A stretch of 64,000 nt of DNA from an uncultured Gammaproteobacteria bacterium. Its GTDB lineage: Bacteria; Patescibacteriota; Patescibacteriia; 2-12-FULL-57-11. The position numbers and the translations under genes were made by a program. The notes beneath the pieces were generated by a model. That model saw nothing but the letters and a program-made list of their open reading frames with translations. It was not told the DNA's origin and did not search any database. The stretch spans positions 33,731 through 97,730 of the forward strand of contig CAZYLV010000003.1 in assembly GCA_964648865.1 (NCBI GenBank). Reading direction: 5' to 3'. This document shows, one piece after another, positions 23,818 through 59,500 of this stretch (positions within the stretch are counted from its first letter, which is position 1; each line of letters starts with the position of its first letter).

Positions 23818-24525
23818 AGGCGGTTTCCGAGAAGAAAACAGGACAGTCAGCGGGAAAATGATAACAGCGCGGACGATGCGCCACAACCGCCGTGGCTGAA
23901 GGACGAGCCGCCACAGCCACTCCAGGCCGAGGCGCTGCATCAGACGTGGCGCGCGCGGTACGCGCCCGGTGAGGAAGTCCAGGCCGCCGCCCACGGCCAT
24001 CAGCAGCCGCGCCTTGGGATACGCCGCGCCGAACCGCGCGATCCAGCGCTCCTGGTGCGGCGCGCCGAAGTTGACGATGATGACCTCCTCATCTCCCCCG
24101 TCCGCACCCACGGAGCGCCGTTCCTCCACGGCGAAGCGGAGCGCCGGCCAACGGGCACGGACCGCGGTGGAGATGTCCGCGGCACCGCTCAACCCGCCAT
24201 GCCGGATGACGAAACGTACCGTGAGCCCCCGGGCGGCCGCTTCGTCCAGGACCGACTCCATCATGTCCGCGCCCGGTACGCGCTCCGCGGCGAGGCCGCG
24301 CAGGAGCAGCGCCCAGACCACGCCGGTGCCGTCAGGCAGCAGCAGTACGGCACGCGCGAGGGCCTCCGCGAGCGCCGGGTCGCGCCTGGCCGCCAGGACG
24401 ATCTCCGGATTCACGGAGAGCGCCGTCACGCCGCGTCCCGTGCGGAGCGCCTCCCGCAACGCCGCTTCGGCGCCGGTGCGGGTCAGCGCGTCCACCGGAG
24501 CGCCGGCGACGGTCGTGCGTATCAT
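23818..24525 (-). CDS. WecB/TagA/CpsF-family glycosyltransferase (N-acetylmannosaminyltransferase-like), in-frame with gltX with no stop between them
   Basis: A ~236-aa region (MIRTTVAG ... VNPEIVL ... NFGAPHQERWIA ... LDFLTGRVPRAP.. EWLWRL) matches the WecG/TagA family. It reads straight into the GluRS Met (..FSSRKPPMPSSN..). Confidence 0.7.
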
Positions 24526-25076
24526 ACGCCGAGCGGGTAGCCGTGGAGCTCGGTATAGCGCGCGCCGCCGCGGCCGATGTCGCTTCGGTAGAGACCGAAT
24601 CGGTCGACGAGGAAGCGCGTCTCCGCTACGTGCGCGCGGAAGGCATCCGCCGGCACCGGCGCCTCGAGCCGGGCCACGGTGAGATGCGGCGCCCAAGGAC
24701 GATGGTCGACGTCGATCCGCAGGCGCTCCAGCTCCTTGCCGACATCCTCGCGCAACGAGGCGACGGCCGATCCGTGCGGCTCGGCGACCCCCACCCAGAC
24801 GACGCGCGGGTGCACCGCGTCCGGGAAGAACCCGACCTCGGTGAGCCGGACCTCGGTCGGGCGATACCGTGCCGCGATGGGCGCCATGGCGGCGTGCACG
24901 GCCGCGACGCTCCCCTCCTCGAGATGCCCGAGGAAATGCAGGGTCATGTGGATGCTCTCGGGCGGCGCCCAGCGCACGCGCGGCCGCACCGAGCGACGCA
25001 TCTGTCGCATCACGTCATCAAGCACCTGCCGGACGCCGGCGGGAATCGGGATGGCCAAGAAGAGGCGCAAGGACAT
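24522..25076 (-). CDS. thpR: RNA 2',3'-cyclic phosphodiesterase (2H family, ThpR/LigT)
   Basis: 184 aa. Two H-x-T/S-x motifs (HMTLHFLG and HLTVARL). Overlaps the WecG-like start by 4 nt. Confidence 0.8.
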   Translation of the reverse strand: MSLRLFLAIPIPAGVRQVLDDVMRQMRRSVRPRVRWAPPESIHMTLHFLGHLEEGSVAAVHAAMAPIAARYRPTEVRLTEVGFFPDAVHPRVVWVGVAEPHGSAVASLREDVGKELERLRIDVDHRPWAPHLTVARLEAPVPADAFRAHVAETRFLVDRFGLYRSDIGRGGARYTELHGYPLGV

Positions 25077-25183: not shown

Positions 25184-27823
25184 ATGGCAAACGACCGTTT
25201 CACCAAGAAGGGCGACGAGGCCGTTCGCGCCGCGCGCGAGATCGCCGAGCGGCACCGGCACCGCGCCATCGACGACATGCATCTGCTCTCCGCGCTGGTC
25301 AGCCAGCCGGACGGGTTGGTCCCCGGCGTCCTGGAGCGCATCGGCGTCGATGTCGATGCGTTGCTCGAGGAGACCGACGAGCTCATCCACGAGGGCATGC
25401 CCCCGGGCGAGATCGTCTTCGGTACGACGCGCCGCCTGATCGACGCGCTCTCCGCCGCGGAGACGCTCTCCCAGGAGATGGGCGACCCGGTGGTCGGCAC
25501 CGAACACATGTTCCTCGGGCTGCTCGATAAGGGCGAGCGCCTCATTCCCCTCTTCCAGGACCACGGGGTGGACCGCAAGAGCTTCGAGGCGGCGCTCAAG
25601 GACGCCCGCGAGGCCGGGACGGGGCGAGCCCCGGAGCGCGAGGCGCCCAAGGTGCTCGAGAAGTACGGCCGCAACCTCACGGCACTGGCGCGGCAAAAGA
25701 AGCTCGATCCGGTCATCGGTCGCGACGACGAGATCCGCCGCGTCATCCAGGTGCTCAGCCGCCGCACCAAGAACAACCCGGTGCTGGTGGGCGAGGCCGG
25801 GGTCGGCAAGACGGCCATCGTCGAGGGCCTGGCCCAGCGCATCGCCTCAGGCGACGTACCCGAGTCGCTGGTCGACCGCGACGTCGTGGCGCTGGACCTC
25901 GGCGCCCTCGTGGCCGGCACCAAGTTCCGCGGCGAGTTCGAGGAGCGCCTCTAGGCCGTCATGAAGGAGATCGAGAAATCGAACGGCGGCATCATCCTCT
26001 TCATCGACGAGCTCCACACGCTCGTCGGCGCCGGCGGAGCCGACGGCGGCTCGCTGGACGCCTCCAACATCCTCAAGCCTGCGCTGGCCCGCGGCGAGCT
26101 GCACGCGATCGGCGCCACGACGCTGCGCGAGTTCCAGAAGCATATCGAGAAGGACCCCGCGCTGGAGCGGCGCTTCCAGCCGGTCATGGTCCATGAGCCG
26201 ACGGTCGAGGACACCATCGCCATGCTCCGCGGCATCAAGGAGAAATACGAGGTCCACCACGGCGTCAAGATCACCGACGCCGCCATCGTCGCCGCTGCCG
26301 AGCTCAGCCACCGTTACATCAACGACCGCTCCCTGCCGGACAAGGCCGTCGACCTCGTGGACGAGGCCGCCGCCGCGCTGCGCATGGACGTCGACAGCCA
26401 GCCCGTGGAGATCGAGCGCCTGCGCCGCGACGCCACGCGCCTGGAGATCGAGAAGCGCGCCCTGGAGGCCGAGGACGACCCGGCACAGGCCGAGCGCAAG
26501 ACCCAGGTCGGCCGCGAGCTGGTCGAGCTCAACGAACGCATCGCCGCGCTGGCCGCCAAGTGGACCAAGGAGAAGGAGATCGTCGGCGCGCTGCGCACGG
26601 CCCAAAAGGAGCTGGAACGCCTGCGCACCGAGAGCGACATCGCCGAGCGCCGCGGCGAGCTCGAGCAGGTCGCCGAGATCCGCTACGGCCGCATCCCGGC
26701 GCAGGAAAAGGCCATGGCCGCGCTCGAGGAGAAGCATCGCACCCAGAAGGGCGAACGCTTCATCAAGGACAAGGTCGGCGCCGAGGAGATCGCCGCGGTC
26801 GTCTCGCGCTGGACCGGCATCCCGGTCACCAAGATGCTCGAGACGGAACGGGAGAAGCTCCTGCAGCTCGAGGCCGGACTCGGCAAGCGCGTCGTCGGCC
26901 AGCCCGAGGCCATCGCCGCCGTGGCCAACGCGCTCCGCCGCAACCGCGCCGGGGTGAGCGAGGGCGAACGGCCCATCGGCTCGTTCCTCTTCCTGGGCCC
27001 AACGGGCGTCGGCAAGACGGAGCTGGCCCGCGCGCTGGCCGCCTATCTCTTCAACGACGAGACGGCCATGATCCGGGTGGACATGTCCGAGTTCATGGAA
27101 CGCCACGAGACGGCCAAGCTGATCGGTTCGCCGCCCGGCTACGTCGGCCACGACGAGGGCGGCCAGCTCACCGAGAAGGTCCGCCGCCGGCCGTACAGCG
27201 TGGTGCTCTTCGACGAGGTCGAGAAGGCCCATCCGGACGTCTTCAACCTGCTGTTGCAGATCCTCGACGACGGCCGGCTGACGGACGCCAAGGGCCGCCG
27301 CGTGAACTTCAAGAACACCGTCATCATCATGACCTCCAATGTCGGAAGCCGCTCGCTCAGCCAGGTCACGACCGGCGCGGCGTTGGGCTTCGCCGACGGC
27401 GACGGCGGGCAGGAACCGGAGCAGCGCATGCGCGAGAAGATCCGCGAGGAGCTCGAGGAGCGCTTCCGGCCGGAGTTCCTCAACCGCGTCGACGAGATCA
27501 TCACCTTCCATCCGCTCACGAGGACGCATATCGCCGACATCGTCGACGTGCAGCTCTCGCGGCTCGCCGAGCGGCTCAAGGAGCGCCGCGTCGCCGTGGA
27601 GGTGAGCGACGCCGCCAAGGCCTACCTGGCCGAGAAGGGCTACTCGCCGAGCTTCGGCGCCCGCCCGCTCAAGCGGCTCATCCAGACGGAGGTCGGCAAC
27701 CGCCTGGCCGAGGCATTGCTCAAGGGCGACATCGCCGAGGGCGACACGGCCGCGGTCGACGTCAAGAAGGACGCGCTGACCGTCAACCGCGCCCGCCGCA
27801 AGGTCAAGGCCGCCGTGGCCTGA
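25184..27823 (+). pseudogene. clpB: ClpB disaggregase, interrupted by a single in-frame TAG at 25952-25954 (conserved Lys position of ..[10 protein letters not shown]-..); otherwise intact
   Basis: Track ORFs 25184..25954 and 25961..27823 are contiguous ClpB in one frame. It carries an N-domain, NBD1 Walker A GEAGVGKT, a coiled-coil M-domain, NBD2 Walker A GPTGVGKTE and a sensor-2 region. TAG is a genuine stop elsewhere in this window. Confidence 0.85.
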
Positions 27824-32869: not shown

Positions 32870-33805
32870 ATGCGCATCGTCTTTTGGGGGACCTCGACCT
32901 TCGCCGTCCCGGCCTTGCGCGCGCTGCACGCCGCTGATGGCGTCGAGCTCGTCGCCGTGGTCACCCAACCGGACAAGCCGCACGGCCGTCATGGCGACAT
33001 CCTGCCGGGCCCCGTGGCCGCCGCCGCGCGAGAGCTCGGCCTGACGCTGCTCCAGCCGGAGACCGTGAGGGACGAGACGCTCCGGCAGACGCTCGAGGAT
33101 GCGGCGCCCGACGTCGCGGTCGTGGCCGCCTACGGCCGCATCATCCCGGAGGCGCTGCTGGCGATCCCGCGGCTGGGCACGCTCAACATCCACCCGTCAT
33201 TGCTGCCCCGCTGGCGCGGTCCCTCACCCATCCAGGCGGCCATCGCGCACGGCGACGCCGAGACCGGGGTGAGCATCATGCTGCTCGACGCCGAGATGGA
33301 CCACGGTCCCCTGCTCGCGCAGCGCCGCGTCCCGCTCTCCGGGACCGAACGGTACCCCACGCTCGAGACGCACCTTGCCGAGGTCGGGGCCGCGCTGCTC
33401 TTGGAGACGGTCCCGCGGTACGTCTCAGGCGGACTGCGACCCGTGTCGCAGGACCACGACCAGGCCGTCTTCTGCGGCATGCTGGACCGGGACAGCGGCC
33501 GCGTGGACTGGAGCGCGTCCGCCGTCTCCATCGCCCGTCTCGACCGTGCCTACGATCCGTGGCCCGGCATCTGGACCGAGTGGACCGACGGCACGGCGAC
33601 GCTGCGCGTCAAGCTCTTCGATGCGCGCGTCGAGGACGTGGTCGCCGACTTGGGAGCCCTGTCGCAGCGGCAGGACCGGCTCCTCGTGGGAGCCCATGCG
33701 GAATCCGTGTCCTTCGGCGAACTGCAGGTCGAAGGCAAGAAGCGCCTGACCCTCACGGAGCTGCTGCGCGGGATGCCGATGTTCCTGGACGGACGGTTCC
33801 GCTGA
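32870..33805 (+). CDS. fmt: methionyl-tRNA formyltransferase
   Basis: 311 aa. An N-terminal formyltransferase domain (..LNIHPSLLPRWRG..) and a C-terminal domain. The def-fmt order supports the call. Confidence 0.93.
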   Translation: MRIVFWGTSTFAVPALRALHAADGVELVAVVTQPDKPHGRHGDILPGPVAAAARELGLTLLQPETVRDETLRQTLEDAAPDVAVVAAYGRIIPEALLAIPRLGTLNIHPSLLPRWRGPSPIQAAIAHGDAETGVSIMLLDAEMDHGPLLAQRRVPLSGTERYPTLETHLAEVGAALLLETVPRYVSGGLRPVSQDHDQAVFCGMLDRDSGRVDWSASAVSIARLDRAYDPWPGIWTEWTDGTATLRVKLFDARVEDVVADLGALSQRQDRLLVGAHAESVSFGELQVEGKKRLTLTELLRGMPMFLDGRFR

Positions 33806-35243
33806 TCCCGTACGCCAACAGCAGCACGCCTATCCCCAACGGATGGTTGAGCCACGGCGAGAGCAGATGCGCTCCCGCGGTGCCGAGCACGGCCAGGCCC
33901 AAACCGATATGCAGCCACGGACCGTCAGGGTCCGTTTTTGCCGCCTGCCAGGAGCGCCATAAGACCACGCAAAGGAAGAAGGCGAAGGCGATCGGACCGA
34001 CGAGACCCATCTTCAACCAGAAGTCCAGCCAGCCCCACTCGAAGGCGCTGGTCGTGTAATTGCCGTCAGGGAAATACGCGAGCAGACGCGGGTCACGCGT
34101 CACGTACGTCAGCTCCTTGCCGAAGCCGTGGCCGAGCAGCGGCTGCTCACGGATCGCCGGCCACATCACCCGCAGCAGGTTCATGCGGCTGTCGGCCGCG
34201 GGCTCGCCGGCGACCGCGCCGACGCGAGAGAACGCCGCGCCGCTCACCGAGCGCGAGAGCAGGAACGGCAACCCGATGCCCAACGCGGCGAACACGAGCA
34301 GGGCGAGCAGGTACGCGCCGAGCTTGGGACGCGTGACATGCCATGCGGCGACGGTCAGCGCGCCGAGCGCGGCGGCGACGGCGGCCGCGAGCCAGAAGGT
34401 CCGCGAGAAGGAGACGAAGACCACGGCGGCCGCGAGGATGCCCGAGACCTCGATGATGAGGCGGTTCGGCAGCGTCGGATCGCCTGGCGCCGCGCGGTCA
34501 CGCTCGGTGCGGGCGGCGACGTACAGCGCCGGTGCCATCAGGAACACGGCGAAGGTCCAGAGATGCGCCTGGAAGAAGACACGATAGAACCCGCCGGGCG
34601 CGCGCGTGATTTCCCCGAAGCCGAAATCGCGGATCCAGACGTACGAGGCGCGCAGCACCGGCTCCGGCGTCGCGTGGGTGTAGAGGAAGAACAGCAGCAG
34701 CGTCTGCACGGCACCGGCGGCGACCGCGCCGAGGACCGCGGAGAGGAGCATGGCGCGATCTTTGGCGTTCCGCAGCGCCAAGACGTACGTCGGCAGGAGC
34801 AGCAGGTACAGGTAGGCGTTGAGGTCCGAGAACACCCGGCCGAACGGCCGCTGCGTGAGGCCCCACGTCGCGCCCCAGGCCACGGCTGCGGCAAGCAGGA
34901 GCGTGGCCGGATGACGCAGGACGGGCGTGAGATGCCGCCGCAGGTCGGGGCGGCGCAGCTCCCAGGCCGTTGCCGCGAGCGCGACCGCGAACAGCACCAT
35001 GCGGACCGAGAGCCCTCCCCAGGGAAGGACGAAGCTCCGGCCCAAGGACCCTGCCGCGAGCTCCACGAGGACGACGGCCGTCCCGAGCGCGAATGACCGA
35101 CGGTACAGGAGCGCGGCCACGCCGGCCACGACGACGACGCCCACCGGCTCCAGCCCCCGCGCCTGCGAAGCGCCGAAGGAGGCGAGAAGCGCGAGGGACG
35201 TCGCCCCGAACGCGAGGAGATAGGGTCGCAGGGGAACCGTCAT
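33753..35243 (-). CDS. O-antigen ligase (Wzy_C) family polytopic membrane protein
   Basis: Internal Met of track ORF 33753..35285. About 12 TM segments and a Wzy_C-like loop (..RMNLLRVMWPAIREQPLLGHGFG..). Confidence 0.75.
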   Translation of the reverse strand: MTVPLRPYLLAFGATSLALLASFGASQARGLEPVGVVVVAGVAALLYRRSFALGTAVVLVELAAGSLGRSFVLPWGGLSVRMVLFAVALAATAWELRRPDLRRHLTPVLRHPATLLLAAAVAWGATWGLTQRPFGRVFSDLNAYLYLLLLPTYVLALRNAKDRAMLLSAVLGAVAAGAVQTLLLFFLYTHATPEPVLRASYVWIRDFGFGEITRAPGGFYRVFFQAHLWTFAVFLMAPALYVAARTERDRAAPGDPTLPNRLIIEVSGILAAAVVFVSFSRTFWLAAAVAAALGALTVAAWHVTRPKLGAYLLALLVFAALGIGLPFLLSRSVSGAAFSRVGAVAGEPAADSRMNLLRVMWPAIREQPLLGHGFGKELTYVTRDPRLLAYFPDGNYTTSAFEWGWLDFWLKMGLVGPIAFAFFLCVVLWRSWQAAKTDPDGPWLHIGLGLAVLGTAGAHLLSPWLNHPLGIGVLLLAYGISGTVRPGTSASRAAAP

Positions 35244-36109
35244 GCGTAGGTGGAACGCTTCATGCCGAGCATGCCGATGCCCCAAGCCAGAAGCATTGCC
35301 ACGGGGTGCAGGAGACGGACCAGGGCCCAGGCGAACGGTCCGTGATGCTTGCGCATGTACGCGGCCAGGCTCGCGTCATAGAAGCGTTGGCGCTGCGGCG
35401 CGAAGACCTGGGCGAAGCTCTGCCCGCCATGATGGATGACGGCCGTCTCCGCGTCGTACCAGACCTCCAGTCCGGCGTCGACCGCTTGCTTGCACCAGTC
35501 GACTTCCTCGAACCAGATGAAGTAGCGCTCATCCAGGGGCCCCAGGCGGTCCAGGCCGACGCGCGTCATCAGGAAGGCCGCGCCGATGACCTGCTCGGCC
35601 CGTTGCGTCTTGGCGTAGTCGAAGCCGTCGCGGAAATACCGCCGCAGGAACGGGAGGGAACGCGAGACGTGCTGCAGCTTGAGCATGATCATGGCCTGAT
35701 CGGCGGGGCGCGGGAAGTCCAGCACCGATCGCTGCGTGCTGCGGTCCGCGTTGAGCACGTGGCAGCCGACCACGGCGGCCTGCGGATGCGCGTCCGCGAA
35801 CCGTACCAGCGCGGCCGGCGCATCCTCGATGAGCTCGGTGTCCGGATTGAGGAGCAGCACGTGGCGGCCGGACGCCGTGCGGATGCCTTGGTTGCATGCG
35901 GCGGCGAATCCCCTGTTTTCGGCGTTGCCGATGAAGCGGACCTCAGGGAACGAGCGGCGCAGTTCGTCGCCGAGACCGTCGCCGCTGGCGTTGTCGATGA
36001 CCAGGGTCTCATGCGGGACACGCACATGCGCACGGATGGAGGCCAACAGCCGCAACACCAACGGCTTGACCCTGTAATTGACGATGACGATGGAGACCTC
36101 AGGCGTCAT
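35240..36109 (-). CDS. family 2 glycosyltransferase
   Basis: 289 aa from the internal Met (MTPEVSIVIVNYR). GT2 motifs (VIDNASGDG, DTE...). A 4-nt overlap with the ligase gene. Confidence 0.8.
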   Translation of the reverse strand: MTPEVSIVIVNYRVKPLVLRLLASIRAHVRVPHETLVIDNASGDGLGDELRRSFPEVRFIGNAENRGFAAACNQGIRTASGRHVLLLNPDTELIEDAPAALVRFADAHPQAAVVGCHVLNADRSTQRSVLDFPRPADQAMIMLKLQHVSRSLPFLRRYFRDGFDYAKTQRAEQVIGAAFLMTRVGLDRLGPLDERYFIWFEEVDWCKQAVDAGLEVWYDAETAVIHHGGQSFAQVFAPQRQRFYDASLAAYMRKHHGPFAWALVRLLHPVAMLLAWGIGMLGMKRSTYA

Positions 36110-50730: not shown

Positions 50731-52938
50731 TCACTCCACAGGTTCGGCGGGCGTCGACGTGGCACCCTGCAGACGGTCGATACGCGCGCGCAGCTCGCGG
50801 TTGTCCGGAGCCAGGGCGGCGGCGGCCTCGTACCAGCGCTGCGCGGCCGCGTTCTCCCCTTTCTGCTCCAACAGCTCGGCGATGCGGATGAGCGGCGTGG
50901 GATCCCCGCCGAGGAGCTGCGCGGCGCGGCGGGCAAGCGTCTCGGCCGCGGCCAGGTCGCCGTCCGCGCCCCGGCCGGTGAGCACGCCGGCGAGCAGGGT
51001 GAGCGGCGCGGCGTCGAGCGGCGCGGCCCGCACGCCGTCCTCGGCTGCGGCCACGGCCTCGTCCGTGCGGCCGGTCTCGATGAGCAGGGCCACGAGCCGC
51101 GCCCGTGCCGGGAAGACGGCCGGCGCCAGACCGACCGCCGCGCGGTAGGCCTCCTCCGCGCCGGCGGCGTCGCCGCGCAGGGAGCGCAGGTCGCCGAGGG
51201 CGATGGGGAACGTGGGGTTGGCGGGTTCCGCGGCGCGGGCGGCGGCGATCCAGGCGTCGAGCTCCGGGACGTCGCGGCCGGCGCGCACGGCCTGCATGCC
51301 GACGGTCACGGCGGCCTCGAGCAACGAGGCGCGGCCGGAGGACGCCGCCAGCCGGGCGCGGACAAGCGCCGCATCCAACGCGACGGTCGGGTCTTCCGCG
51401 GCGGCGGCGCGCTCCAGGGCGACCAGCGCGCCGACGGCATGGATCTCCGGCGGCGGGGTCCGGCCGAGCGCGGCGGCGTAGGCGGCTTCGGCATCGTCCG
51501 GCGTCCGCGACCGCAGGACGGCACCGAAGGCCCGGCCCGCGACGCAGGACCAGACGGTCGCGGCCAGGGCGATGGCCGCCAGCACGAGCAGCGCGGTACC
51601 GGTCCAGCCGAGCAGCAAGGCACGACGCCCGTCCTCGGTCTTCGCGGGCTTCTCCGTCTCAGGACGCGCACCGAGCAGCCAACCGACGCCGAGGGCGGAC
51701 ACGAACAGCCCGGCGGGGGGCACCATGCTCCAGGCGGCAGCGGCGACCAACGCGACGACGAGCGCGGCCATGCCGGCCGCCGCAAGACCGACATCGTCCG
51801 CGGGCGCGGTACGGCGGGCGAAGGCGCGCCGCACGCCACGCGCCGCCGGCACGGCCGCCGAGGTGCGGACCACGGAGACCAGCGACACGCCGACGAGCAC
51901 GAGGGACGCCGCGAGTCCCGCCAGGCCGAGGTCGTACAGCCATTGCAGGAGCACGTTCGGCGCCACCGGGAACCGCACGTTCCAGATGGCCGGACCGTTG
52001 AGCGATGCGGGCCGGACGCGGCCGAAGGCGTCGAGGAAGGTCCCCGGGCCGCTGCCGAAGACGGCGGCGAGCGGATCCTGACGCCAGAGGCCGGGGGCGG
52101 CGGCGAGCACGTCCATGGGGCGCAGATCCACCTCCGCCGGAACCGTGGCGACCAGCGGCGCAGGGAGACGCACCACGGCGAGCAGCAACGACACCGCGGC
52201 CAGCGCGAAGACGGCATTCGCCCCCGGCCGCCAGAGTCCGCCGAAGCGGCGCAACGCGGCGGCGAGCAGGACCACCAGCCCCAGGCACAGCACGCCCCAG
52301 ACGAGGCCGCGGTCCACGCGCACCAGGACGGCCAGGTGCAGCAGCGCCGACGCGACCCAGAGGGCGCGGGACGCGGGGGGCTGGCCGGCGCGGACGAGCG
52401 CGGCGGCGGCGATCACGATCGCCGGGAGGGAAAGCAGCGCGGCATGCGTCGGGACGGCCGCGGCGAAGGACAGCACGTCGCCGGAGGGCAGCGGCCACGA
52501 CGGGAAGAAGGTATGCAGCAGGAGCGACGCCTGGTGGAGACTCAGCGACGCGACGATCCCGACCGGGAGCGTGCGCCGTGCCGCAGGGACGCCGGCCGCC
52601 GGGACGGCCGCGGCCAGGGCGAGCAGCAGTGAGCCGGAGGCCGTCCAGAACACCGGACGGCCCCAGAACGCGGCCAGGACATCGCCCGAACGCAGGACCG
52701 AGACGAGCGTCACCAGAACGAAGGCGCCCAAGGCCGCTGCGGCGATCCGCGACGGTGGCCGCGCGGCGACGACCGGCAGGGCGCCCCACAGCGCGAGCAG
52801 GGACAACGTCAGGACGGCTGCGGCGCGCGCGGCGCCGATGTCGGCGGAGCCGGGGCCTACCCAGAACAACGCGGCGGCCAGTGCCGACAGGAGGAAGACG
52901 CCGGGCAGGTGCGGACGCGCGTCGGACAGGCGTTTCAT
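50731..52938 (-). CDS. Wzy_C (O-antigen ligase / O-oligosaccharyltransferase-like) polytopic membrane domain fused to a long C-terminal TPR array (735 aa)
   Basis: Internal Met of track ORF 50731..53481. About 10-12 TM helices containing the ..AVFGSGPGTFLDAF.. Wzy_C-type loop. The last ~300 aa are Ala-rich TPR-like repeats (..AEEAYRAAVGLAP.. ..AQRWYEAAAALAP..). Confidence 0.7.
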   Translation of the reverse strand: MKRLSDARPHLPGVFLLSALAAALFWVGPGSADIGAARAAAVLTLSLLALWGALPVVAARPPSRIAAAALGAFVLVTLVSVLRSGDVLAAFWGRPVFWTASGSLLLALAAAVPAAGVPAARRTLPVGIVASLSLHQASLLLHTFFPSWPLPSGDVLSFAAAVPTHAALLSLPAIVIAAAALVRAGQPPASRALWVASALLHLAVLVRVDRGLVWGVLCLGLVVLLAAALRRFGGLWRPGANAVFALAAVSLLLAVVRLPAPLVATVPAEVDLRPMDVLAAAPGLWRQDPLAAVFGSGPGTFLDAFGRVRPASLNGPAIWNVRFPVAPNVLLQWLYDLGLAGLAASLVLVGVSLVSVVRTSAAVPAARGVRRAFARRTAPADDVGLAAAGMAALVVALVAAAAWSMVPPAGLFVSALGVGWLLGARPETEKPAKTEDGRRALLLGWTGTALLVLAAIALAATVWSCVAGRAFGAVLRSRTPDDAEAAYAAALGRTPPPEIHAVGALVALERAAAAEDPTVALDAALVRARLAASSGRASLLEAAVTVGMQAVRAGRDVPELDAWIAAARAAEPANPTFPIALGDLRSLRGDAAGAEEAYRAAVGLAPAVFPARARLVALLIETGRTDEAVAAAEDGVRAAPLDAAPLTLLAGVLTGRGADGDLAAAETLARRAAQLLGGDPTPLIRIAELLEQKGENAAAQRWYEAAAALAPDNRELRARIDRLQGATSTPAEPVE

Positions 52939-53384
52939 GGGCGGCTGAGGTTCTCGGAAATCAGGGACTCGATGTCGTCGACCCAACGGGCGTCGCCCGG
53001 CGTCGGCTCCTCGTCTTGCCGAGGAGCGGCCGGGGGGAGTGCCCGCGCATCGGACCGCGGCAGGGATGGCCGTGCGAAGGCACCGCGGATGAAGGCGGCC
53101 GCGGCGCGGTCGGCGGCGTCGGCGACCTCGATGCTGCCGAGCGCCACTCTCCCCCACCACAACGCCGCCGTCTCGGAGACGCGGAAGGCGAACTCGTCCC
53201 AGGCGGCGACGCCTCGGGTGAGTGCGCTGCGCGCATCGGCCAGCGGGTGCCAGCGGGAGACGGTCTGGACCGCGCGCCACGGCGCGGCCGCCACGTCGAT
53301 GCGCAGGTCCTCGAAGCCGCGCGCCGCGACAGGTGCGGGCAGGAGCACGGCGGCAAGCAGTACGGCGACGACGACCCCCCTCAT
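52935..53384 (-). CDS. small secreted protein (149 aa, signal peptide MRGVVVAVLLAAVLLPAPVAARG)
   Basis: Internal Met of track ORF 52935..53867. Its ATG overlaps the upstream ATPase stop (ATGA) and its stop overlaps the next gene's start by 4 nt. Confidence 0.5.
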   Translation of the reverse strand: MRGVVVAVLLAAVLLPAPVAARGFEDLRIDVAAAPWRAVQTVSRWHPLADARSALTRGVAAWDEFAFRVSETAALWWGRVALGSIEVADAADRAAAAFIRGAFARPSLPRSDARALPPAAPRQDEEPTPGDARWVDDIESLISENLSRP

Positions 53385-55150
53385 GGCTGCGGCGGTCCGT
53401 CGAATTCGACCACTTCGCCCGGCGCCGGGCGGCCGCTCTTGGCCGAGAACGGCACCGGCTCCTGCTCCTTGAGCGCGGCAAGCGGCGCCGGCGGCTGCGC
53501 GGCCTCCTCGACGCGCTTGCGCTCGTCCTTGACGATCTTGAAGCAGTCGTCGCAGTAGTACGGGCGGCTGGGGTCCGGCTGGAAGGTCAGCTGGAGCTTC
53601 TTGCCGCAGCGTGCGCATGTGGCGTCGTGGAGCTTCTTGGCTTGCTTCGCCGGGGCGGGCGCCGACTTCTCGCCAGCGGGCGCCGGCTGGGGCGCGGGCG
53701 CTGCGGGCCTCGGGGCAGGCCGGGCAGGCGACGCGCTGCGGGGCGGCATCCGCCGCGCGGGAGCGGCGGATGCGGCACGCGGCGCCGGTCGCGGCGCGGC
53801 GCCCGTACGCGCGGGGGACGCGGCCGGCGTGCTGACGAAGGTCTCCCCGCCCGCCAGCCCGGACCACTGCAGGATCTTCTCCTCGATGACGGCGCGCGGC
53901 GTGGCGTAGCGCTCCCGCGACACCTTGATGACCTTGTCCGTGCTGCCGGTGCGGACGTTGATGGGCGGCAGCGTATTGGCGGAGAAGATCTCCGAGGCCA
54001 CGCCGTCGATCATCAGTTTGACGTAGACCTCGAACTTGGTGAGGTTGACAAGGTCCTCCGGCAGGAAACGCGGCGCCACCTCCTGCTCCAGGAACAGGGC
54101 GTCCGAGGCGCCGACGCGGAAGAAGACCATCGTGCCGACGTTGCCGAAGACGGCCGGCCGCACGTAGTCCTCGTCGAGCTGCTCGATGTACTGGTGGGCG
54201 ATGACCAGGTTGAGCCGGTACTTGCGCGCCTCGGAGAGGATGTTGGCGAAGCTGGCCGTGGCGAAGTTCTGGAACTCGTCGACGTACAGGTAGAAGTCGC
54301 GGCGGTCCTCCTCCGGCATGTCGACGCGCTCCATGGCGGCGAGCTGCAGCTTGGTGATGAGCATGCCGCCGAGCAGGCGCGAGGAGTCCTCGCCGATGCG
54401 GCCTTTGGCCAGGTTGATGATTAGGATCTTGCCCTCGTCCATGACCTGCCGCATGTCGATGGTCGACTTCACCTGGGCCACGATGTTGCGGATGATGGTC
54501 GCCGCCAGGAACTGTCCGACCTTGTTCTGGATCGGGGCGATGGCCTCGTTGCGGAAGCGGTCCTCCCAGCGCGCGTACTCGTCCTGCCAGAAGGCCTTGA
54601 CCACCGGATCCCTGACCACCGCGAGCACGCGCTTGCGGAACTCCTTGTCCACGAGGATGCGGTTGATGCCGAGCAACGTCGAGCCGGGGTACTCGAGCAG
54701 CGTCAGGATGCAGTTGTTGAGGATGTGCTCCATCCGCGGGCTCCAGACGTCGGGCCAGATCTTCTTGAAGACGCCCATCAGGCCCTGGGCCGCGAGCGGC
54801 CGGGTGCGCTCGTCCACGGCCTCGAGCACGTTGAAGCCGATCGGGAAGTCGAGGTCGGCCGGGTTGAAGTAGACGACGTCGTTGATGCGGTGCGCCGGGA
54901 TGAAATCCAGGAGCTTCTCGGCGGTGTCGCCGTGCGGGTCGACGTAGGCCACGCCATGCCCCGCGGCGATGTCGTTGAGGATCATGTTCTCGAGCAGGGT
55001 CGTCTTGCCCATGCCCGTCTTGCCGAGCACGTAGACGTGCCGGCGGCGGTCGTCGGTCTTGATGCCGAACTTCCGCCGGGCGTTGCGGAAGTTGGTCTCG
55101 GCGAAGAAGTTGATCTCGCTGTCGTGGTCGTGGTCGTACTGCAGCGCCAT
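53381..55150 (-). CDS. type IV secretion coupling-protein-like ATPase (VirD4/TraG/TraD family, soluble) with a Pro/Ala-rich linker and C-terminal C4 zinc ribbon
   Basis: 589 aa. Walker A LGKTGMGKTTL and Walker B LYVDEFQNF. A T4CP C-terminal signature (..IAHQY.. ..FGNVGTMVFFRVG..). A C-terminal zinc ribbon CARCGKK...CDDC. No N-terminal TM helices. Confidence 0.75.
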   Translation of the reverse strand: MALQYDHDHDSEINFFAETNFRNARRKFGIKTDDRRRHVYVLGKTGMGKTTLLENMILNDIAAGHGVAYVDPHGDTAEKLLDFIPAHRINDVVYFNPADLDFPIGFNVLEAVDERTRPLAAQGLMGVFKKIWPDVWSPRMEHILNNCILTLLEYPGSTLLGINRILVDKEFRKRVLAVVRDPVVKAFWQDEYARWEDRFRNEAIAPIQNKVGQFLAATIIRNIVAQVKSTIDMRQVMDEGKILIINLAKGRIGEDSSRLLGGMLITKLQLAAMERVDMPEEDRRDFYLYVDEFQNFATASFANILSEARKYRLNLVIAHQYIEQLDEDYVRPAVFGNVGTMVFFRVGASDALFLEQEVAPRFLPEDLVNLTKFEVYVKLMIDGVASEIFSANTLPPINVRTGSTDKVIKVSRERYATPRAVIEEKILQWSGLAGGETFVSTPAASPARTGAAPRPAPRAASAAPARRMPPRSASPARPAPRPAAPAPQPAPAGEKSAPAPAKQAKKLHDATCARCGKKLQLTFQPDPSRPYYCDDCFKIVKDERKRVEEAAQPPAPLAALKEQEPVPFSAKSGRPAPGEVVEFDGPPQP

Positions 55151-55153
55151 ACG

Positions 55154-56635
55154 CTAGACCGGAAGGTTCTCGGGCGGCGCGCCGGTGCCGGCCTGGGAGG
55201 GCGCCGGCTGCTGCTTGGGGCGGATCGGCGGGGCCGCGGGCTCCACGGGCAGACGCAGCGGCGGCTCGGCGCGCTTGGACTCGGCCTTCTTGACGGTCGG
55301 GGTCTTCACCAGGAGCGACGGGAAGTGCCAGAGCGACGCCAGCTCCTCGGTCGACAGGATGTAGGGCGTGGCGCCGCGGAAGTTATGCCGGTACTTGTAC
55401 GCCCAGAAGATGGACTTGATGCGCTCGTTGGTCGTCTTGTAGAACGTGCCGGACAGGTAGAAGAAGATCGGATTGAGCTGCCAGAAGTAATCGTACTTGG
55501 TGGTCACCGGGCCGTAGAAGCCGAGCTTGTTGAGGTTGAGGGTGGTGAACTGCTGCAGCGCGCCGCGCACGAAGGAGATGATCGTGCCGGTGCGGAAGTT
55601 CTTCTTGGGGGCGATGTAGATGAAGCGGATCTTGGTCTTGAGCCCGATCTTGGAGAGCTTCTGCTCGACGCGCTCCACGACGAACCGCTCGCCCGGGGAG
55701 AGGTGCAGCATCTGGGAGCGCGGCTCCTCCTTCTTCTGCTGCGGTTTGGCCGGCTCGCCGCCGATCAGCCCGGAGACGCCGATGTCCAGCGCTTGGAGCG
55801 GCAGGTCCATGGCCTTGTCGAGCGCCGTCACCTTGGGCGCGACCTTGGCGCCGATGAGCTTCTTGACCAAGGTCTCGCCGGCGTCCTTCCAGTCCTGGCT
55901 GCAGGTCGTCACCAGGATCTGCAGCCAGACCTGCTCGCCCGCGCCCAGCTTGGCCAAGCCCTCGAGCAGACCGGCCATGGGATCCTTGAACTCGCCCGAG
56001 ATGGGATCGCTGAAATCGAGGTAGGTCTTGATGGGGTAGAACTCCGGCTTGCTCGGCACGAACTCCGAGCCGAAGAAACCCCACTCCTTGTTCGGCCAGG
56101 GCCACTGCTGCGGCACGTTGAGCACGTAGTCCTCGACCTCGGTGATCTCCGCCTCGGGATACTGCGCGTAGATGGTGGCCTCGACGAGGTCGCGGTACTT
56201 CTCCCAGACGCGCACCAGGAACTGCACGTACCCTTCGATGGAGACGATCTCGAAGCTGAAGACGGGCGGCATCTTGCCGTCCCAGAACCGCTCCTTGCGC
56301 GTGAAGCTGGAGTGCGCGCCGAGGAGTTGGGCGAAGATGTTCTCGACGGCCTTGGGTGTCTGCTCCGTGGACTTGGGCACGTCGACCGCCAAGAGCACCG
56401 GGTTGACCGAGTTGATGAACAGGAACTGGCGCTCGTTGATCCAGATCCACCAGAAACCGCGCAGGAAGACGATGAGTACGGGGATCCAGCCGCCGGCGCG
56501 GAACAGCTCCCACATGACGATCACCGGATGCTGGGCGCCGAGCCAGTCGATATACGCCAGAAAGGCACCGACGTCGATGGAGATCATCGGCATATGCGCA
56601 ACCAGTATAACACAGGAAAGACAAAGGAGGGGCAT
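55154..56635 (-). CDS. membrane protein (493 aa): N-terminal TM helices plus a large soluble domain; partner of the T4CP-like ATPase
   Basis: Track ORF. A hydrophobic N-terminus (..WIPVLIVFLRGFWWIWI..). No family recognised. Separated from the ATPase gene by 3 nt. Confidence 0.6.
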   Translation of the reverse strand: MPLLCLSCVILVAHMPMISIDVGAFLAYIDWLGAQHPVIVMWELFRAGGWIPVLIVFLRGFWWIWINERQFLFINSVNPVLLAVDVPKSTEQTPKAVENIFAQLLGAHSSFTRKERFWDGKMPPVFSFEIVSIEGYVQFLVRVWEKYRDLVEATIYAQYPEAEITEVEDYVLNVPQQWPWPNKEWGFFGSEFVPSKPEFYPIKTYLDFSDPISGEFKDPMAGLLEGLAKLGAGEQVWLQILVTTCSQDWKDAGETLVKKLIGAKVAPKVTALDKAMDLPLQALDIGVSGLIGGEPAKPQQKKEEPRSQMLHLSPGERFVVERVEQKLSKIGLKTKIRFIYIAPKKNFRTGTIISFVRGALQQFTTLNLNKLGFYGPVTTKYDYFWQLNPIFFYLSGTFYKTTNERIKSIFWAYKYRHNFRGATPYILSTEELASLWHFPSLLVKTPTVKKAESKRAEPPLRLPVEPAAPPIRPKQQPAPSQAGTGAPPENLPV

Positions 56636-56665
56636 GGTCCGCCATGCCCCTCCCGGTATGGATGC

Positions 56666-57562
56666 CTAGCGTCTGGCGGACCAGCGCTGCCAGGTCACGA
56701 GCAGCGGTGACGCCAGGAACATGGAGGAATAAGTGCCGACGCTGATGCCGATGATGAGCGCCAGGACGAACATCCGGGTGGACGCGCCGCCGAAGAGCGC
56801 CACGGCGGCCAGGACCAGCAGGGTCGTGAGCGAGGTGTTGAGCGAGCGGACGAAGGTCTGCCGCACGGAATCGGCGACCACCTGCTCGAAGTCGCCGGCA
56901 CCGCGGCGCCGCAGGTTCTCCCGGACGCGGTCGAAGACCACGATGGTGTCATGGACCGAGAAGCCGAGCACGGTCAGCAGCGCCGTGACGAAGAGCACGT
57001 CGACCTCGACCCCGGCGAAGGTCCCCAGCGCGGCGAAGACGCCGGTCGGGATGAGGACGTCGTGGATGAGCGCGACGATGGCCACGAGGCCGTACTTCCA
57101 GGAGGCCACCGGCTTGGAGACGTGGCGGAAGACGAAGGCGATGTACAGCACGATGGCGAGCACCACCAGCGCGATGGCACGCAGCGAGCGGCCGCGCAGC
57201 TCCGAGCCCACCGACGGTCCCACGGTCTGGTAGGACAGCTCGGCGACGGCGGCCTCGTCTTCGCCGCGCAGCGCCGCGAGCAGCGCCTTGCGGCTGGCGT
57301 CGTCCGTGGCCTGGTAGCGCAGGTTGGCCTCGCGCTCCCCCACCGGCTGCACCAGCACCGTGCCGATGCCCGCGCCGGCGGCCGCGGCCTCGATCTCCTG
57401 CACCGCAGGGCGGCCGTGCGCGAACTCCACCTGCAGCAGCGAGCCGCCGGTGAAGTCGATGCCCAAGCGCAGCCCCCAGACGCCGATCGCCAGGAGCGAC
57501 GCGGCCACCAGGATGCCGGAGATGGCGTACCAGAGCTTCCTCAATCGGATGATGTTCGGCAT
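56666..57562 (-). CDS. secF: protein translocase subunit SecF
   Basis: 298 aa. Motif ..GIDFTGGSLLQVEF.. and six TM helices. Confidence 0.93.
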   Translation of the reverse strand: MPNIIRLRKLWYAISGILVAASLLAIGVWGLRLGIDFTGGSLLQVEFAHGRPAVQEIEAAAAGAGIGTVLVQPVGEREANLRYQATDDASRKALLAALRGEDEAAVAELSYQTVGPSVGSELRGRSLRAIALVVLAIVLYIAFVFRHVSKPVASWKYGLVAIVALIHDVLIPTGVFAALGTFAGVEVDVLFVTALLTVLGFSVHDTIVVFDRVRENLRRRGAGDFEQVVADSVRQTFVRSLNTSLTTLLVLAAVALFGGASTRMFVLALIIGISVGTYSSMFLASPLLVTWQRWSARR

Positions 57563-57572
57563 AGGGATGGCG

Positions 57573-59321
57573 TCAGCCCTTCCGGACGCCCACGAGCCAG
57601 GCGTGCTTCTCCATCCACGGCCCGGCGATCGACAGCAGGAAGCCGCGCGTCACGAGGATGGCCGTGAACATGGACACCAGGATGCCGATGGCCAGCGTCA
57701 CGGCGAAGCCCTTGACCAGCGAGGTGCCGAGCCAGACCAGGATGGCGCAGGTGATGAGCGAGGAGACGTTGGAGTCGCGGATGGACAGCCAGGCGCGGCG
57801 GAAGCCCTCCTCGATGGCCTCGCGCACCGGCTTGCCGGACCGCAGCTCCTCCTTGAACCGCTCGAAGATGAGGATGTTGGCGTCCACGGCCATGCCGATG
57901 GACAGGATGAACCCGGCGATGCCCGCGAGCGTCAGCGTGACGTCGATACCCTTGAAGACCGCCAGGGTGAGCGCCGCGTAGACGGCCAGCGCCAGCGAGG
58001 CCACGAGCCCCAGGAAGCGGTAGAAGACGAGCATGAAGGCCACGACCAGCGCGAAGCCGATGAGCCCTGCCATGAGCGACTTCTCGAGCGAGGCGGCGCC
58101 GAGCGTCGGGCCGACGGTCTGCTGGGTGATGAGCGAGATGGGCACGGGGAGCGCGCCGGCGTTGAGGTTGCGCACCATCTGCTTGGCCTCGGGGATGGTG
58201 AAGGTGCCGGTGATCTGCGCCTCGCCGCCGAGGATCTCCTGCTGGACGATGGGGTCGGAGAGCTTGACGCCGTCCAGGAAGATGGCCAGCGGCCGGCCGA
58301 CGTTGCGCTTGGTGATGTCGGCGAACAGCTGGGCGCCCTCGGCGTCGAACTGCAGGCCGATCTGCACCGCACCCGTCTGCTGGTCGAAGAGCACGTTGGC
58401 GCGCTTGAGGTTCTTGCCGGTCAGGCCGCTGCCCTTCCATTCCTCGGGCGGGACGATGTCCGTCTCCGCGAGCTTGCCGATGAGGATGTGGCTGGCCTGC
58501 CATTCCGGCACGGTCGAGCCGAGGGTCTCGCCCTCCGTCGTCTCGACCTCAGGTCCTGCGACCTCGCGCTCGTCGGTCTTGAGGATGACGTGGTACCCGA
58601 ACTCCGTGGCCACCGGCGTCTTGGTGTATGCGCCCTTCTCGAGCCCGTCGACGGCCTGCTGGAACGCCGGAATCATCGCGCCTTGGCCGAACCAGCCCAG
58701 GTCGCCGCCCTGCTCCTTGCTGCCCGGGTCGTCCGAGAGTTCCTTGGCGAGCGCGGCGAAGTCCTCGCCCGCGTCGAGACGCGCGATGACCTCCTCGGCC
58801 TTCTTCTTGGCATCGGCGTCGCTCTCGGCGAGCTGCTGCCGCTCCTCTTCCGTGAGGGCGCGCGACGGCTCGGTGCTGACTTCCTTGAATTCCAGGAGCG
58901 GCGTCTCGCCGATCTTGCGGATGGCCTCCTCGACGTCCAGGATGCCGGCCAGGTCCACGATCAGCCGGTGGTCGTCGCCGACGATGGCCGTCTGCACCAG
59001 CGGCTCGGAGACGCCGAAGGCGTTGACCCGGCGCTCGATGACCTCACGGAGCCCGTTCAACTGCTCGCGCCGCTCGCCCTCGATGATGCCGGACATGTCG
59101 GCCTGGTAGACGAGATGCGAGCCGCCCTGCAGGTCGAGCCCGAGGCGGAACGGTTTGCTCGGGAAGCCGGCCACCGGGTACGCGAAGAGCGCGGCCAGGA
59201 CGCCGAACAGGATGACGCCCGCGGACAGCGCGCGGAAGCGCAGCGCGCCGCCGCGGAAGAACGAGGCCAACGGCGGACCGGATTTCCTGGAGGACTGGGG
59301 ATTCGCCATATCGCGCGGCAT
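57573..59321 (-). CDS. secD: protein translocase subunit SecD
   Basis: The start is taken at the Met (MPRDMANPQ...) of track ORF 57573..59465. Motif ..LGLDLQGGSHLVY.., a periplasmic domain and C-terminal TM helices. Confidence 0.9.
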   Translation of the reverse strand: MPRDMANPQSSRKSGPPLASFFRGGALRFRALSAGVILFGVLAALFAYPVAGFPSKPFRLGLDLQGGSHLVYQADMSGIIEGERREQLNGLREVIERRVNAFGVSEPLVQTAIVGDDHRLIVDLAGILDVEEAIRKIGETPLLEFKEVSTEPSRALTEEERQQLAESDADAKKKAEEVIARLDAGEDFAALAKELSDDPGSKEQGGDLGWFGQGAMIPAFQQAVDGLEKGAYTKTPVATEFGYHVILKTDEREVAGPEVETTEGETLGSTVPEWQASHILIGKLAETDIVPPEEWKGSGLTGKNLKRANVLFDQQTGAVQIGLQFDAEGAQLFADITKRNVGRPLAIFLDGVKLSDPIVQQEILGGEAQITGTFTIPEAKQMVRNLNAGALPVPISLITQQTVGPTLGAASLEKSLMAGLIGFALVVAFMLVFYRFLGLVASLALAVYAALTLAVFKGIDVTLTLAGIAGFILSIGMAVDANILIFERFKEELRSGKPVREAIEEGFRRAWLSIRDSNVSSLITCAILVWLGTSLVKGFAVTLAIGILVSMFTAILVTRGFLLSIAGPWMEKHAWLVGVRKG

Positions 59322-59500
59322 GGTAACGGATGCCGCGGCATCCCTGCAAGCTTGGGCACTTGCCAAGCCCTGGAGGCGTGGTAGGTTGGGAGTGGTCACG
59401 GCATGCCCCGCCCCACCCCAACTACCCCGGGGTTCGCCGCGACCCCGCCGCTTCCGGTCTCGCAACCCTCCCCCCGAGAGACCGTGGAACGGCGGTTTTT

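Follow-up and report, generated by a model that had tools for sequence, protein, structure and literature searches.

A DUF8128 membrane protein and a soluble VirD4-type ATPase encoded side by side in Patescibacteria may form a split type IV coupling protein

The stretch analysed here comprises 64,000 nt of contig CAZYLV010000003.1 (assembly GCA_964648865.1, GTDB lineage Patescibacteriota) with a G+C content of ~69% and is referred to as the window. It carries a run of genes, all on the minus strand, in which a membrane protein of the family DUF8128 (gene 1) directly precedes a soluble ATPase of the type IV coupling protein (T4CP) type (gene 2); T4CPs are membrane ATPases through which DNA or proteins enter bacterial secretion machines of the conjugation type. 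Four open reading frames (ORFs) of this run lie at 55154..56587, 53381..55150, 52935..53384 and 50731..52938. The stop codon of gene 1 and the ATG of gene 2 are separated by a 3-nt gap, and the junctions between genes 2 and 3 and between genes 3 and 4 are ATGA overlaps of 4 nt each, so that both the gene ends and the tight packing agree with a first-pass annotation made from the sequence alone. Two of its boundaries had to be revised. Gene 1 had been drawn from position 56635; its start was instead placed at M17 (56587) or M15 (56593), as the identical public protein P0121 is called with 477 aa and the homologues begin there. Furthermore, the chain of overlaps does not end at 50731 but is prolonged by an alpha/beta-hydrolase ORF, whose first candidate GTG start at 50734 overlaps gene 4 by 4 nt; this is the first candidate only and the true start may differ.

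Gene 1 (55154..56587, alternative start 56593, minus strand; 477 aa) was assigned to PF26449 (DUF8128) by precomputed Pfam annotation of the identical public protein and of nearly all homologues listed. At 50% clustering, the family comprises 3,256 representatives, and a literature search on the name DUF8128 returned no paper. The AlphaFold2 (AF2) model of the protein (predicted local distance difference test score, pLDDT, 78.8) consists of N-terminal helices with one strongly hydrophobic stretch, two alpha/beta regions and a disordered tail. A membrane helix is predicted at approximately aa 22-52 and is followed by an alpha/beta region that would be cytoplasmic, while the tail retains the conserved motifs EELAxxWHFP...KRAEPPxxLP and a terminal PPxNLP. 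When the model was used as query in Foldseek, ranks 1 to 11 were all occupied by chains of TrwK, the VirB4 protein of R388. Neither another P-loop ATPase nor an Hcp-like protein appeared in the Foldseek lists, and therefore we infer that the matched part of TrwK is the VirB4 N-terminal domain; the assignment is indirect in that the aligned residues are not displayed. On the level of predicted structure, DUF8128 would thus have the fold of a VirB4-type N-terminal domain. The VirB4-specific profiles PF03135, PF12846 and TIGR00929 matched neither protein of the pair except for TIGR00929 at 16.8 bits (cut-off 643), and PF12846 was seen only at E 0.13 in a tandem paralogue of the ATPase at another locus (L057).

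Gene 2 (53381..55150, minus strand; 589 aa) was identified as a soluble T4CP-type P-loop ATPase from Pfam and NCBIfam searches, a homologue alignment and an AF2 model. The families TrwB_AAD_bind (PF10412, 39.9 bits, cut-off 20.5), TraG-D_C (PF12696, 30.7 bits, cut-off 22) and T4SS-DNA_transf (PF02534, 25.5 bits, cut-off 20.1) all exceeded their Pfam cut-offs. When a profile built from 20 homologues was compared with all PDB sequences, only TrwB and DotL were matched. In alignment A1, which comprises 20 ATPase homologues, the Walker A motif GKTGMGKT (aa 43-50; 55001..55024, minus strand) is invariant, as are D291 and E292 in the Walker B region YLYVDEF (aa 287-293; 54272..54292, minus strand); the motif AHQ...GNVGT..FFRVG was likewise invariant in 20 homologues. 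The T4CP-like character proposed in the first-pass annotation was upheld by these family scores and PDB matches. A chromosome pump of the FtsK/SpoIIIE type, which had been named as an outcome that would overturn it, was rejected because the FtsK profile remained below its Pfam cut-off, with the T4CP families above theirs, and FtsK was the weaker fold match. The highest NCBIfam equivalog scores for named T4CPs were 41.1 bits for SXT_TraD (cut-off 366), 40.5 bits for CD1115 (cut-off 250) and 27.3 bits for CedD (cut-off 600; E-value 1.4e-6). Since these scores lie far under the cut-offs, the ATPase falls outside every named NCBIfam T4CP subfamily.

The AF2 model of the ATPase (pLDDT 63.9, moderate) shows a RecA-like core that is interrupted between Walker A and Walker B by an all-helical insertion, as is expected of T4CPs; the insertion consists of helices only from about aa 117 to 238, where the local confidence is moderate to low. 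The motor core (aa 1-430) is followed by a variable, disordered Pro/Ala-rich linker, a zinc ribbon and a conserved tail. The ribbon (CxxC-x17-CxxC, aa 505-538; 53537..53638, minus strand) was recognised by TIGR04272 and PF23477 with 41.7 bits (cut-off 36) and 44.9 bits (cut-off 27) and E-values of 7.1e-11 and 9.3e-12, respectively, and its cysteines C512, C515, C533 and C536 are conserved in alignment A1. The tail carries the motif PGEVVEFD (aa 577-584; 53399..53422, minus strand), and the corresponding PGExVxFD closes C-terminal tails that otherwise cannot be aligned. No hydrophobic segment was detected in the ATPase, and the N-terminal transmembrane (TM) anchor expected in the same chain of a T4CP is thus missing. 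The earlier description of a soluble ATPase that ends in a Pro/Ala linker and a C4 zinc ribbon was correct in each of these points, and the structure predictions it had called for gave the VirB4-N-terminal-like fold for gene 1 and the RecA-like core with helical insertion for gene 2. In addition, the first 16 residues (55103-55150, minus strand) contain an invariant His/acidic motif, Y-x-H-D-H-E/D-x-E, ahead of the first strand, which may serve to bind a metal or to dock DUF8128.

Relatives of the pair in which both parts are joined were found on plasmids. A tblastn search with the ATPase against a plasmid collection returned 563 records. The protein WP_331738717.1, encoded on plasmid unnamed2 of Embleya sp. 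NBC_00896, is a single-chain homologue of 812 aa whose C-terminal half matched the hidden Markov model (HMM) of the ATPase at 2e-80 and whose N-terminal half matched the DUF8128 HMM in collinear fashion at 7e-7 (single comparison). Immediately before its P-loop, the motif LSVPELAALAHLP...PPARIP corresponds to EELAxxWHFP...EPPxxLP of the window pair, both following the pattern ELAxLxHxP...PPxxxP. The Embleya gene is flanked on one side by a VirB4-like gene (AAA_10, TraC_F_IV) and on the other by a Replic_Relax gene; PrgI/VirB3, TrbL/VirB6-like and NlpC/P60 genes are close by, and the position is the coupling-protein slot of a conjugative cluster. In actinobacterial homologues of the Embleya N-terminal half, PF26449 shares a chain with PF10412, PF01935 or PF12696 according to precomputed Pfam assignments. 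Both parts are also fused in one ORF of a Priestia plasmid, and on a haloarchaeal plasmid a 395-aa DUF8128-like gene is located directly upstream of the ATPase gene, split as in the window.

The boundary between gene 1 and gene 2 falls within the disordered linker that joins the halves in the single-chain relatives. Judged by these comparisons, gene 1 appears to be the N-terminal half of the single-chain actinobacterial T4CPs, and genes 1 and 2 appear to be the two halves of one T4CP-type protein. The Embleya protein and the window pair have the same two parts in the same order and share the DUF8128 family and the linker motif. The former is one polypeptide, plasmid-borne and flanked by VirB4-, VirB3- and VirB6-like as well as relaxase-type genes, whereas the latter is split and chromosomal, has no neighbours belonging to a type IV secretion system (T4SS) and carries the added zinc ribbon and C-terminal tail. 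With a homologue in such a setting, the earlier suggestion of a translocation module rather than a classical conjugation system was not established.

The gene order was surveyed in both directions. Starting from the ATPase, DUF8128 was found directly upstream in 64 of 80 genome loci; starting from DUF8128, the ATPase was found directly downstream in 63 of the 75 metagenome loci with room. The pairing of the ATPase with the upstream membrane protein was thereby confirmed, while the proposed module of four genes was not: only genes 1 and 2 are conserved together. Wherever the source names a lineage, the homologues of both proteins belong to Patescibacteria, Uhrbacteria or Parcubacteria. The position among housekeeping genes is stable in ~130 loci, with MnmA downstream in 46 of 137 clustered loci. 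DUF8128 gave one marginal match in viral contigs, where the pair is essentially absent, and no match in a tblastn search against the plasmid collection; a phage or plasmid origin within the candidate phyla radiation was rejected on these grounds. The pair is chromosomal and widespread in Patescibacteria and, in the collections searched, is not associated with mobile elements.

The median identity to the ATPase core of the window was 68-70%, as compared to 49-51% for SecD/SecF, 42-46% for MnmA and 39-40% for DUF8128 of the same loci. In loci chosen by DUF8128 similarity, the identity of the ATPase core was above that of SecF in 31 of 32 and above that of SecD in 23 of 24 cases. Across the loci compared (L002-L161) the core is thus better conserved than SecD/SecF, MnmA and its own partner, yet its presumed orthologue is dispensable in laboratory co-culture.

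Several variations of the locus were observed. A second T4CP-like ATPase paralogue of ~470-510 aa and without zinc ribbon is located in tandem directly downstream of the first in seven loci (L018, L021, L025, L031, L038, L057 and L152). Of the 16 genome loci lacking an adjacent DUF8128 gene, 10 encode downstream of the ATPase a separate protein of ~105 aa with two tandem CxxC-x17-CxxC ribbons, either just after the ATPase gene (L034, L040, L056, L060, L066, L070, L074 and L080) or at a distance of ~2 kb (L061) or ~4 kb (L048). The ATPase itself has no zinc ribbon in the lineages where DUF8128 is not adjacent. Since the ribbon is absent from the ATPase there but separately encoded downstream, it appears to behave as a detachable partner. 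The upstream place of DUF8128 is taken by HIT, NUDIX-like and ~700-aa polytopic membrane genes in several of these 16 loci.

Upstream of gene 1 in the window lie secF (56666-57562, minus strand) and secD (57573-59465, minus strand), both identified by Pfam scan. The 78-nt spacer between secF and gene 1 folds better than all of 200 shuffled sequences (z = -3.5). It contains a terminator-like hairpin with a 13-bp GC-rich stem followed by TTTGTCTTT just past the secF stop codon (56625..56654, minus strand) and an extended -10-like element, TGtTATACT (56604..56612, minus strand), which lies ~10 nt upstream of the first gene 1 ATG and was read from the sequence as a putative promoter; a two-hexamer promoter scan of the spacer made no call on this element. 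In L002, the closest relative of the window, the hairpin is conserved and the element is identical. A hairpin with a T-run and a promoter-like element in the spacer make transcriptional or translational coupling to secF unlikely, and therefore genes 1 and 2, although they follow secDF, probably form their own transcription unit. Of the operon coupled downstream of secDF that had been proposed, the position of secD and secF stood and the coupling did not.

In the wider survey, secD/secF could be detected upstream in 85 of the 137 loci but not in the other 52, and no secF was found in 26 of the 65 metagenome loci having upstream room. The secA gene is located ~5.8 kb upstream in 15 loci. A gene for a protein of ~390 aa with Sigma70_r4 and HARE-HTH domains (e.g. 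L053, 5105-6268) stands between secF and DUF8128 in 45 of 137 loci; no copy was found within the window. The secDF genes are a conserved gene-order neighbour and are outside the module. As a separate observation, SecD of the window has an inserted PPIC-type parvulin/rotamase domain (aa 211-298) between its first periplasmic domain and the P1 head, which would position a foldase at the periplasmic side of the Sec motor.

Gene 3 (52935..53384, minus strand; 149 aa) has a signal-like hydrophobic stretch at its N-terminus (aa 1-24), in line with the small secreted protein that had been proposed. It matched no family in the profile scans, and a homologue was found only in L002 (37% identity). Gene 4 (50731..52938, minus strand) encodes a polytopic membrane protein of 735 aa in which an N-terminal membrane domain precedes TPR repeats at the C-terminus; ~10 or more hydrophobic segments were counted. 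The protein had been described as a Wzy_C-TPR membrane protein; the TPR repeats and membrane segments were found again, but the Wzy_C identity was dropped, since PF04932 gave no hit at a threshold as permissive as E <= 1 and the protein bears no similarity to the genuine Wzy_C protein of the window (33753-35375). Homologues of gene 4 lie downstream of the ATPase only in a few loci (L002, L013, L048, L091 and L116). With homologues of genes 3 and 4 confined to the closest relative and a few scattered loci, a four-gene module was rejected; both are lineage-specific local passengers unrelated to the conserved pair.

The scanned ORFs of the window encode mostly housekeeping and cell envelope functions, among them ATP synthase, an AddA-like helicase-nuclease, MreB, PBP2, ClpB, Fmt, RpoA, MnmA and several aminoacyl-tRNA synthetases including AlaRS. 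Pfam scans of the larger ORFs detected no VirB4, VirB6, relaxase or other T4SS family in the 64 kb, in agreement with the first-pass annotation; hence a T4SS (VirB4) and a relaxase, with which a T4CP is expected to be encoded, are lacking within the window. HMMs of the ATPase and of DUF8128 found no second copy among the window ORFs, and the ORF scans revealed no integrase, relaxase or repeat signatures near the pair. Two further observations concern other genes. In a ClpB/ClpC-like gene, an in-frame TAG (25952-25954, plus strand) is located at the position of a conserved Lys in GEFEERL(K)AV; coding-like sequence and Clp domains go on in the same frame past it, and the TAG could be an assembly error, a nonsense mutation or a site of read-through. 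The stop-free ORF at 22375-25014 (minus strand) combines a WecG/TagA-type glycosyltransferase domain (aa 223-380) with a complete glutamyl-tRNA synthetase (catalytic and anticodon domains) and represents either a fusion or two genes without an intervening stop.

T4CP homologues of Patescibacteria have been surveyed before. Quinonero-Coronel et al. (2025) reported 5,713 VirD4-type homologues in 2,918 of 3,035 genomes, of which only 148 are near virB4, and found virB4 itself in 2,417 of the 3,035 genomes (~80%); a VirB4-N-terminal-like protein, TrsD, adjoins virB4, and exaptation of the remote homologues was raised as a possibility (PMC12102498). DUF8128 and the split are not described there. 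In the supplements of Wang et al. (2023), SEML1_0293 of the cultivated Saccharibacterium Ca. Southlakia epibionticum ML1 is a 921-aa protein with PF10412 at residues 402-719, non-essential by transposon sequencing (Tn-seq), which directly follows the essential Sigma70_r4+HARE-HTH gene SEML1_0294; its T4CP-like paralogue SEML1_0142 (ATPase at residues 381-800) and the T4SS are essential (PMC10633639). From the domain layout and the shared neighbour we infer that SEML1_0293 is a fused orthologue of the pair, and presumably it is the 't4cp homologue' of Quinonero-Coronel et al. (2025), who give no locus tag. As in the pair, a T4CP domain begins only at about residue 400 of 921, implying the fused layout, a Sigma70_r4+HARE-HTH gene precedes it as in 45 of the loci surveyed here, and the gene is remote from the T4SS cluster; unlike the pair, it is fused, not split, and has no secDF among its listed immediate neighbours.

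For the interpretation that genes 1 and 2 together encode a split T4CP of the VirD4/TraD/TrwB family, we see about an even chance. Gene 1 would supply the membrane anchor and a cytoplasmic domain of VirB4 N-terminal-domain fold, gene 2 would supply the P-loop motor (FtsK/HerA superfamily, T4CP type), and their separation by 3 nt would make coupled translation more likely. The ATPase may assemble as a ring, be tethered to the membrane through DUF8128 and use ATP to pass a substrate to a membrane channel, with the zinc ribbon (a separate protein in some lineages) and the C-terminal tail as the putative substrate- or adaptor-binding end. Nucleic acid or nucleoprotein would be the likeliest cargo, and the likeliest channel would be the MPF-FATA-like T4SS apparatus that most Patescibacteria encode elsewhere. 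As one of the T4CP paralogues, the pair might serve a substrate that is dispensable for growth in laboratory co-culture.

In canonical T4CPs (TrwB of R388, VirD4, TraD, DotL), the motor is preceded by only two TM helices of the same polypeptide, and a long C-terminal extension serves for partner recognition. The window pair shares with them the P-loop motor with helical insertion, the Pfam T4CP families, the best PDB sequence matches and the long C-terminal extension; it differs in that the anchor is encoded on its own, as a 477-aa protein that includes a VirB4-N-terminal-like domain, and that the NCBIfam equivalog scores are far below the cut-offs. CedD/TedD of archaeal Ced/Ted DNA import is comparable in that it, too, is a T4CP homologue on the chromosome, which in Sulfolobales lies apart from the rest of its system, that some of its orthologues have no TM segment and that it was repurposed from conjugation (PMC11823120). 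The differences are a match of the P-loop region only, which is weak (27 bits, cut-off 600), and that neither a DUF8128 partner nor a zinc ribbon has been reported for CedD.

A number of points weigh against a split T4CP. Partnership with a T4SS is deduced while no T4SS component is present within the 64-kb window, and no NCBIfam equivalog cut-off was reached for any named T4CP (best 41 bits versus 366). A TM segment, a VirB4-N-terminal-like domain and an ATPase make up the architecture of VirB3-VirB4, not of a canonical T4CP. Conservation of the core above SecD/SecF is unusual for accessory conjugation proteins, and the adjacent partner is absent in 16 of the 80 genome loci and 12 of the 75 metagenome loci. 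Moreover, S. epibionticum needs its T4SS but can do without the orthologue (PMC10633639), which is presumed to be one from domain layout and a single shared neighbour. Because ~80% of Patescibacteria assemblies carry virB4 elsewhere (PMC12102498), the pair may nevertheless be an ordinary T4CP of such a system, the other outcome named as one that would overturn the first-pass reading.

An exapted, T4SS-independent role is the main alternative to a split T4CP, followed by a split VirB4, a Sec-linked function and a dead remnant, progressively less likely. In the first of these, itself rather unlikely, the motor would act by itself or through a different channel (e.g. Sec, ComEC or some unknown pore) and move nucleic acid in or out throughout the phylum. 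The distance of all but 148 of the 5,713 T4CP homologues from virB4, for which exaptation was raised by the authors (PMC12102498), points in this direction, as do a presumed orthologue that is non-essential where the T4SS is essential (PMC10633639), an ATPase core more conserved than SecD/SecF of the same loci and the conserved housekeeping neighbourhood (secDF, sigma-like gene, MnmA). The weak NCBIfam match to CedD (1.4e-6) recalls a precedent for a chromosomal VirD4-like T4CP, encoded apart from its system in Sulfolobales, that serves DNA import (PMC11823120), and the zinc ribbons would be compatible with binding of nucleic acid. However, T4CPs are often encoded apart from mating-pore genes, CedD itself works with a VirB4-type machine, and no candidate alternative channel is tied to the pair beyond gene order. 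Prevalence was discarded as a sign of T4SS independence: with virB4 in ~80% and T4CP homologues (~two per genome) in 96% of genomes, two copies each recovered at ~80% would also give ~96%.

It is improbable that the pair is a second, divergent split VirB4, i.e. an assembly or pilin-extraction ATPase parallel to the TrsD+VirB4 pairs of Patescibacteria T4SS loci. The resemblance to VirB4 (TrwK of R388, VirB3-VirB4 fusions) lies in the membrane segment, the VirB4-type N-terminal domain, to which the DUF8128 fold corresponds, and the FtsK/HerA-type ATPase; TrsD of MPF-FATA and Patescibacteria T4SS loci is likewise an N-terminal-like protein encoded beside the ATPase (PMC12102498). In contrast, no VirB4-specific HMM was matched, as described above, and the sequence matches go to T4CP families. 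In addition, fused homologues coexist with a separate VirB4: that of Embleya stands next to a relaxase-type gene and alongside a canonical VirB4-like gene, in the slot of a T4CP.

Very little likelihood is left for a motor of Sec-linked protein export or membrane-protein handling whose place after secDF reflects a partnership with the Sec translocon. The detection of secD/secF upstream in 85 of 137 loci and of secA in 15 would fit such a motor, but secF and gene 1 are separated in the window by the hairpin and the promoter-like element and in 45 loci by the Sigma70_r4+HARE-HTH gene, and secF or secD/secF are often missing (26 of 65 and 52 of 137 loci). The listed neighbours of the S. epibionticum orthologue are the sigma-like gene and a GNAT/CRISPR block. 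To our knowledge, no Sec accessory belongs to the T4CP-like ATPase family. Finally, a decaying remnant of an integrated conjugative element without current function, for which it could be said that the homologues outside Patescibacteria all came from the plasmid-collection search, is effectively refuted by the conservation data, with all catalytic motifs invariant, a core ~68-70% identical across lineages and above the neighbouring Sec genes, a stable housekeeping position in ~130 loci and no integrase, relaxase or repeat signatures nearby.

The ATPase class as such is already known, T4CP homologues remote from virB4 having been reported in Patescibacteria in 2025 (PMC12102498). New are the assignment of DUF8128 as the partner, the distribution of the two halves over separate genes, the relationship to conjugative T4CPs of Actinobacteria and archaea and the extent to which the motor is conserved. 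Should the pair turn out to be no more than the remotely encoded T4CP of a T4SS, the finding would be a useful annotation and not a discovery. A wider reading is tentative and on balance doubtful: the pair might be a phylum-wide Patescibacteria motor under strong purifying selection that has moved past conjugation and, in analogy to CedD of archaea, carries nucleic acid or nucleoprotein between epibiont and host or between epibiont and surroundings; with its retained VirB4-type N-terminal domain, the family would connect VirB4 and the coupling proteins in evolution.

Patescibacteria are unable to synthesise nucleotides, amino acids or lipids and are believed to subsist on host cells, and the route of transfer from cell to cell is an open question. 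In the sole genetically tractable species, the T4SS is essential and its cluster contains no recognisable coupling protein; the many T4CP homologues scattered through Patescibacteria genomes have so far gone without explanation. One of these scattered homologues would now become a two-gene unit, with DUF8128 as the missing membrane half, and in Actinobacteria these two parts make up the coupling protein of genuine conjugative clusters. This provides a concrete genetic target in Saccharibacteria, namely SEML1_0293 against its essential paralogue SEML1_0142, and may bear on how VirB4 and the coupling proteins diverged.

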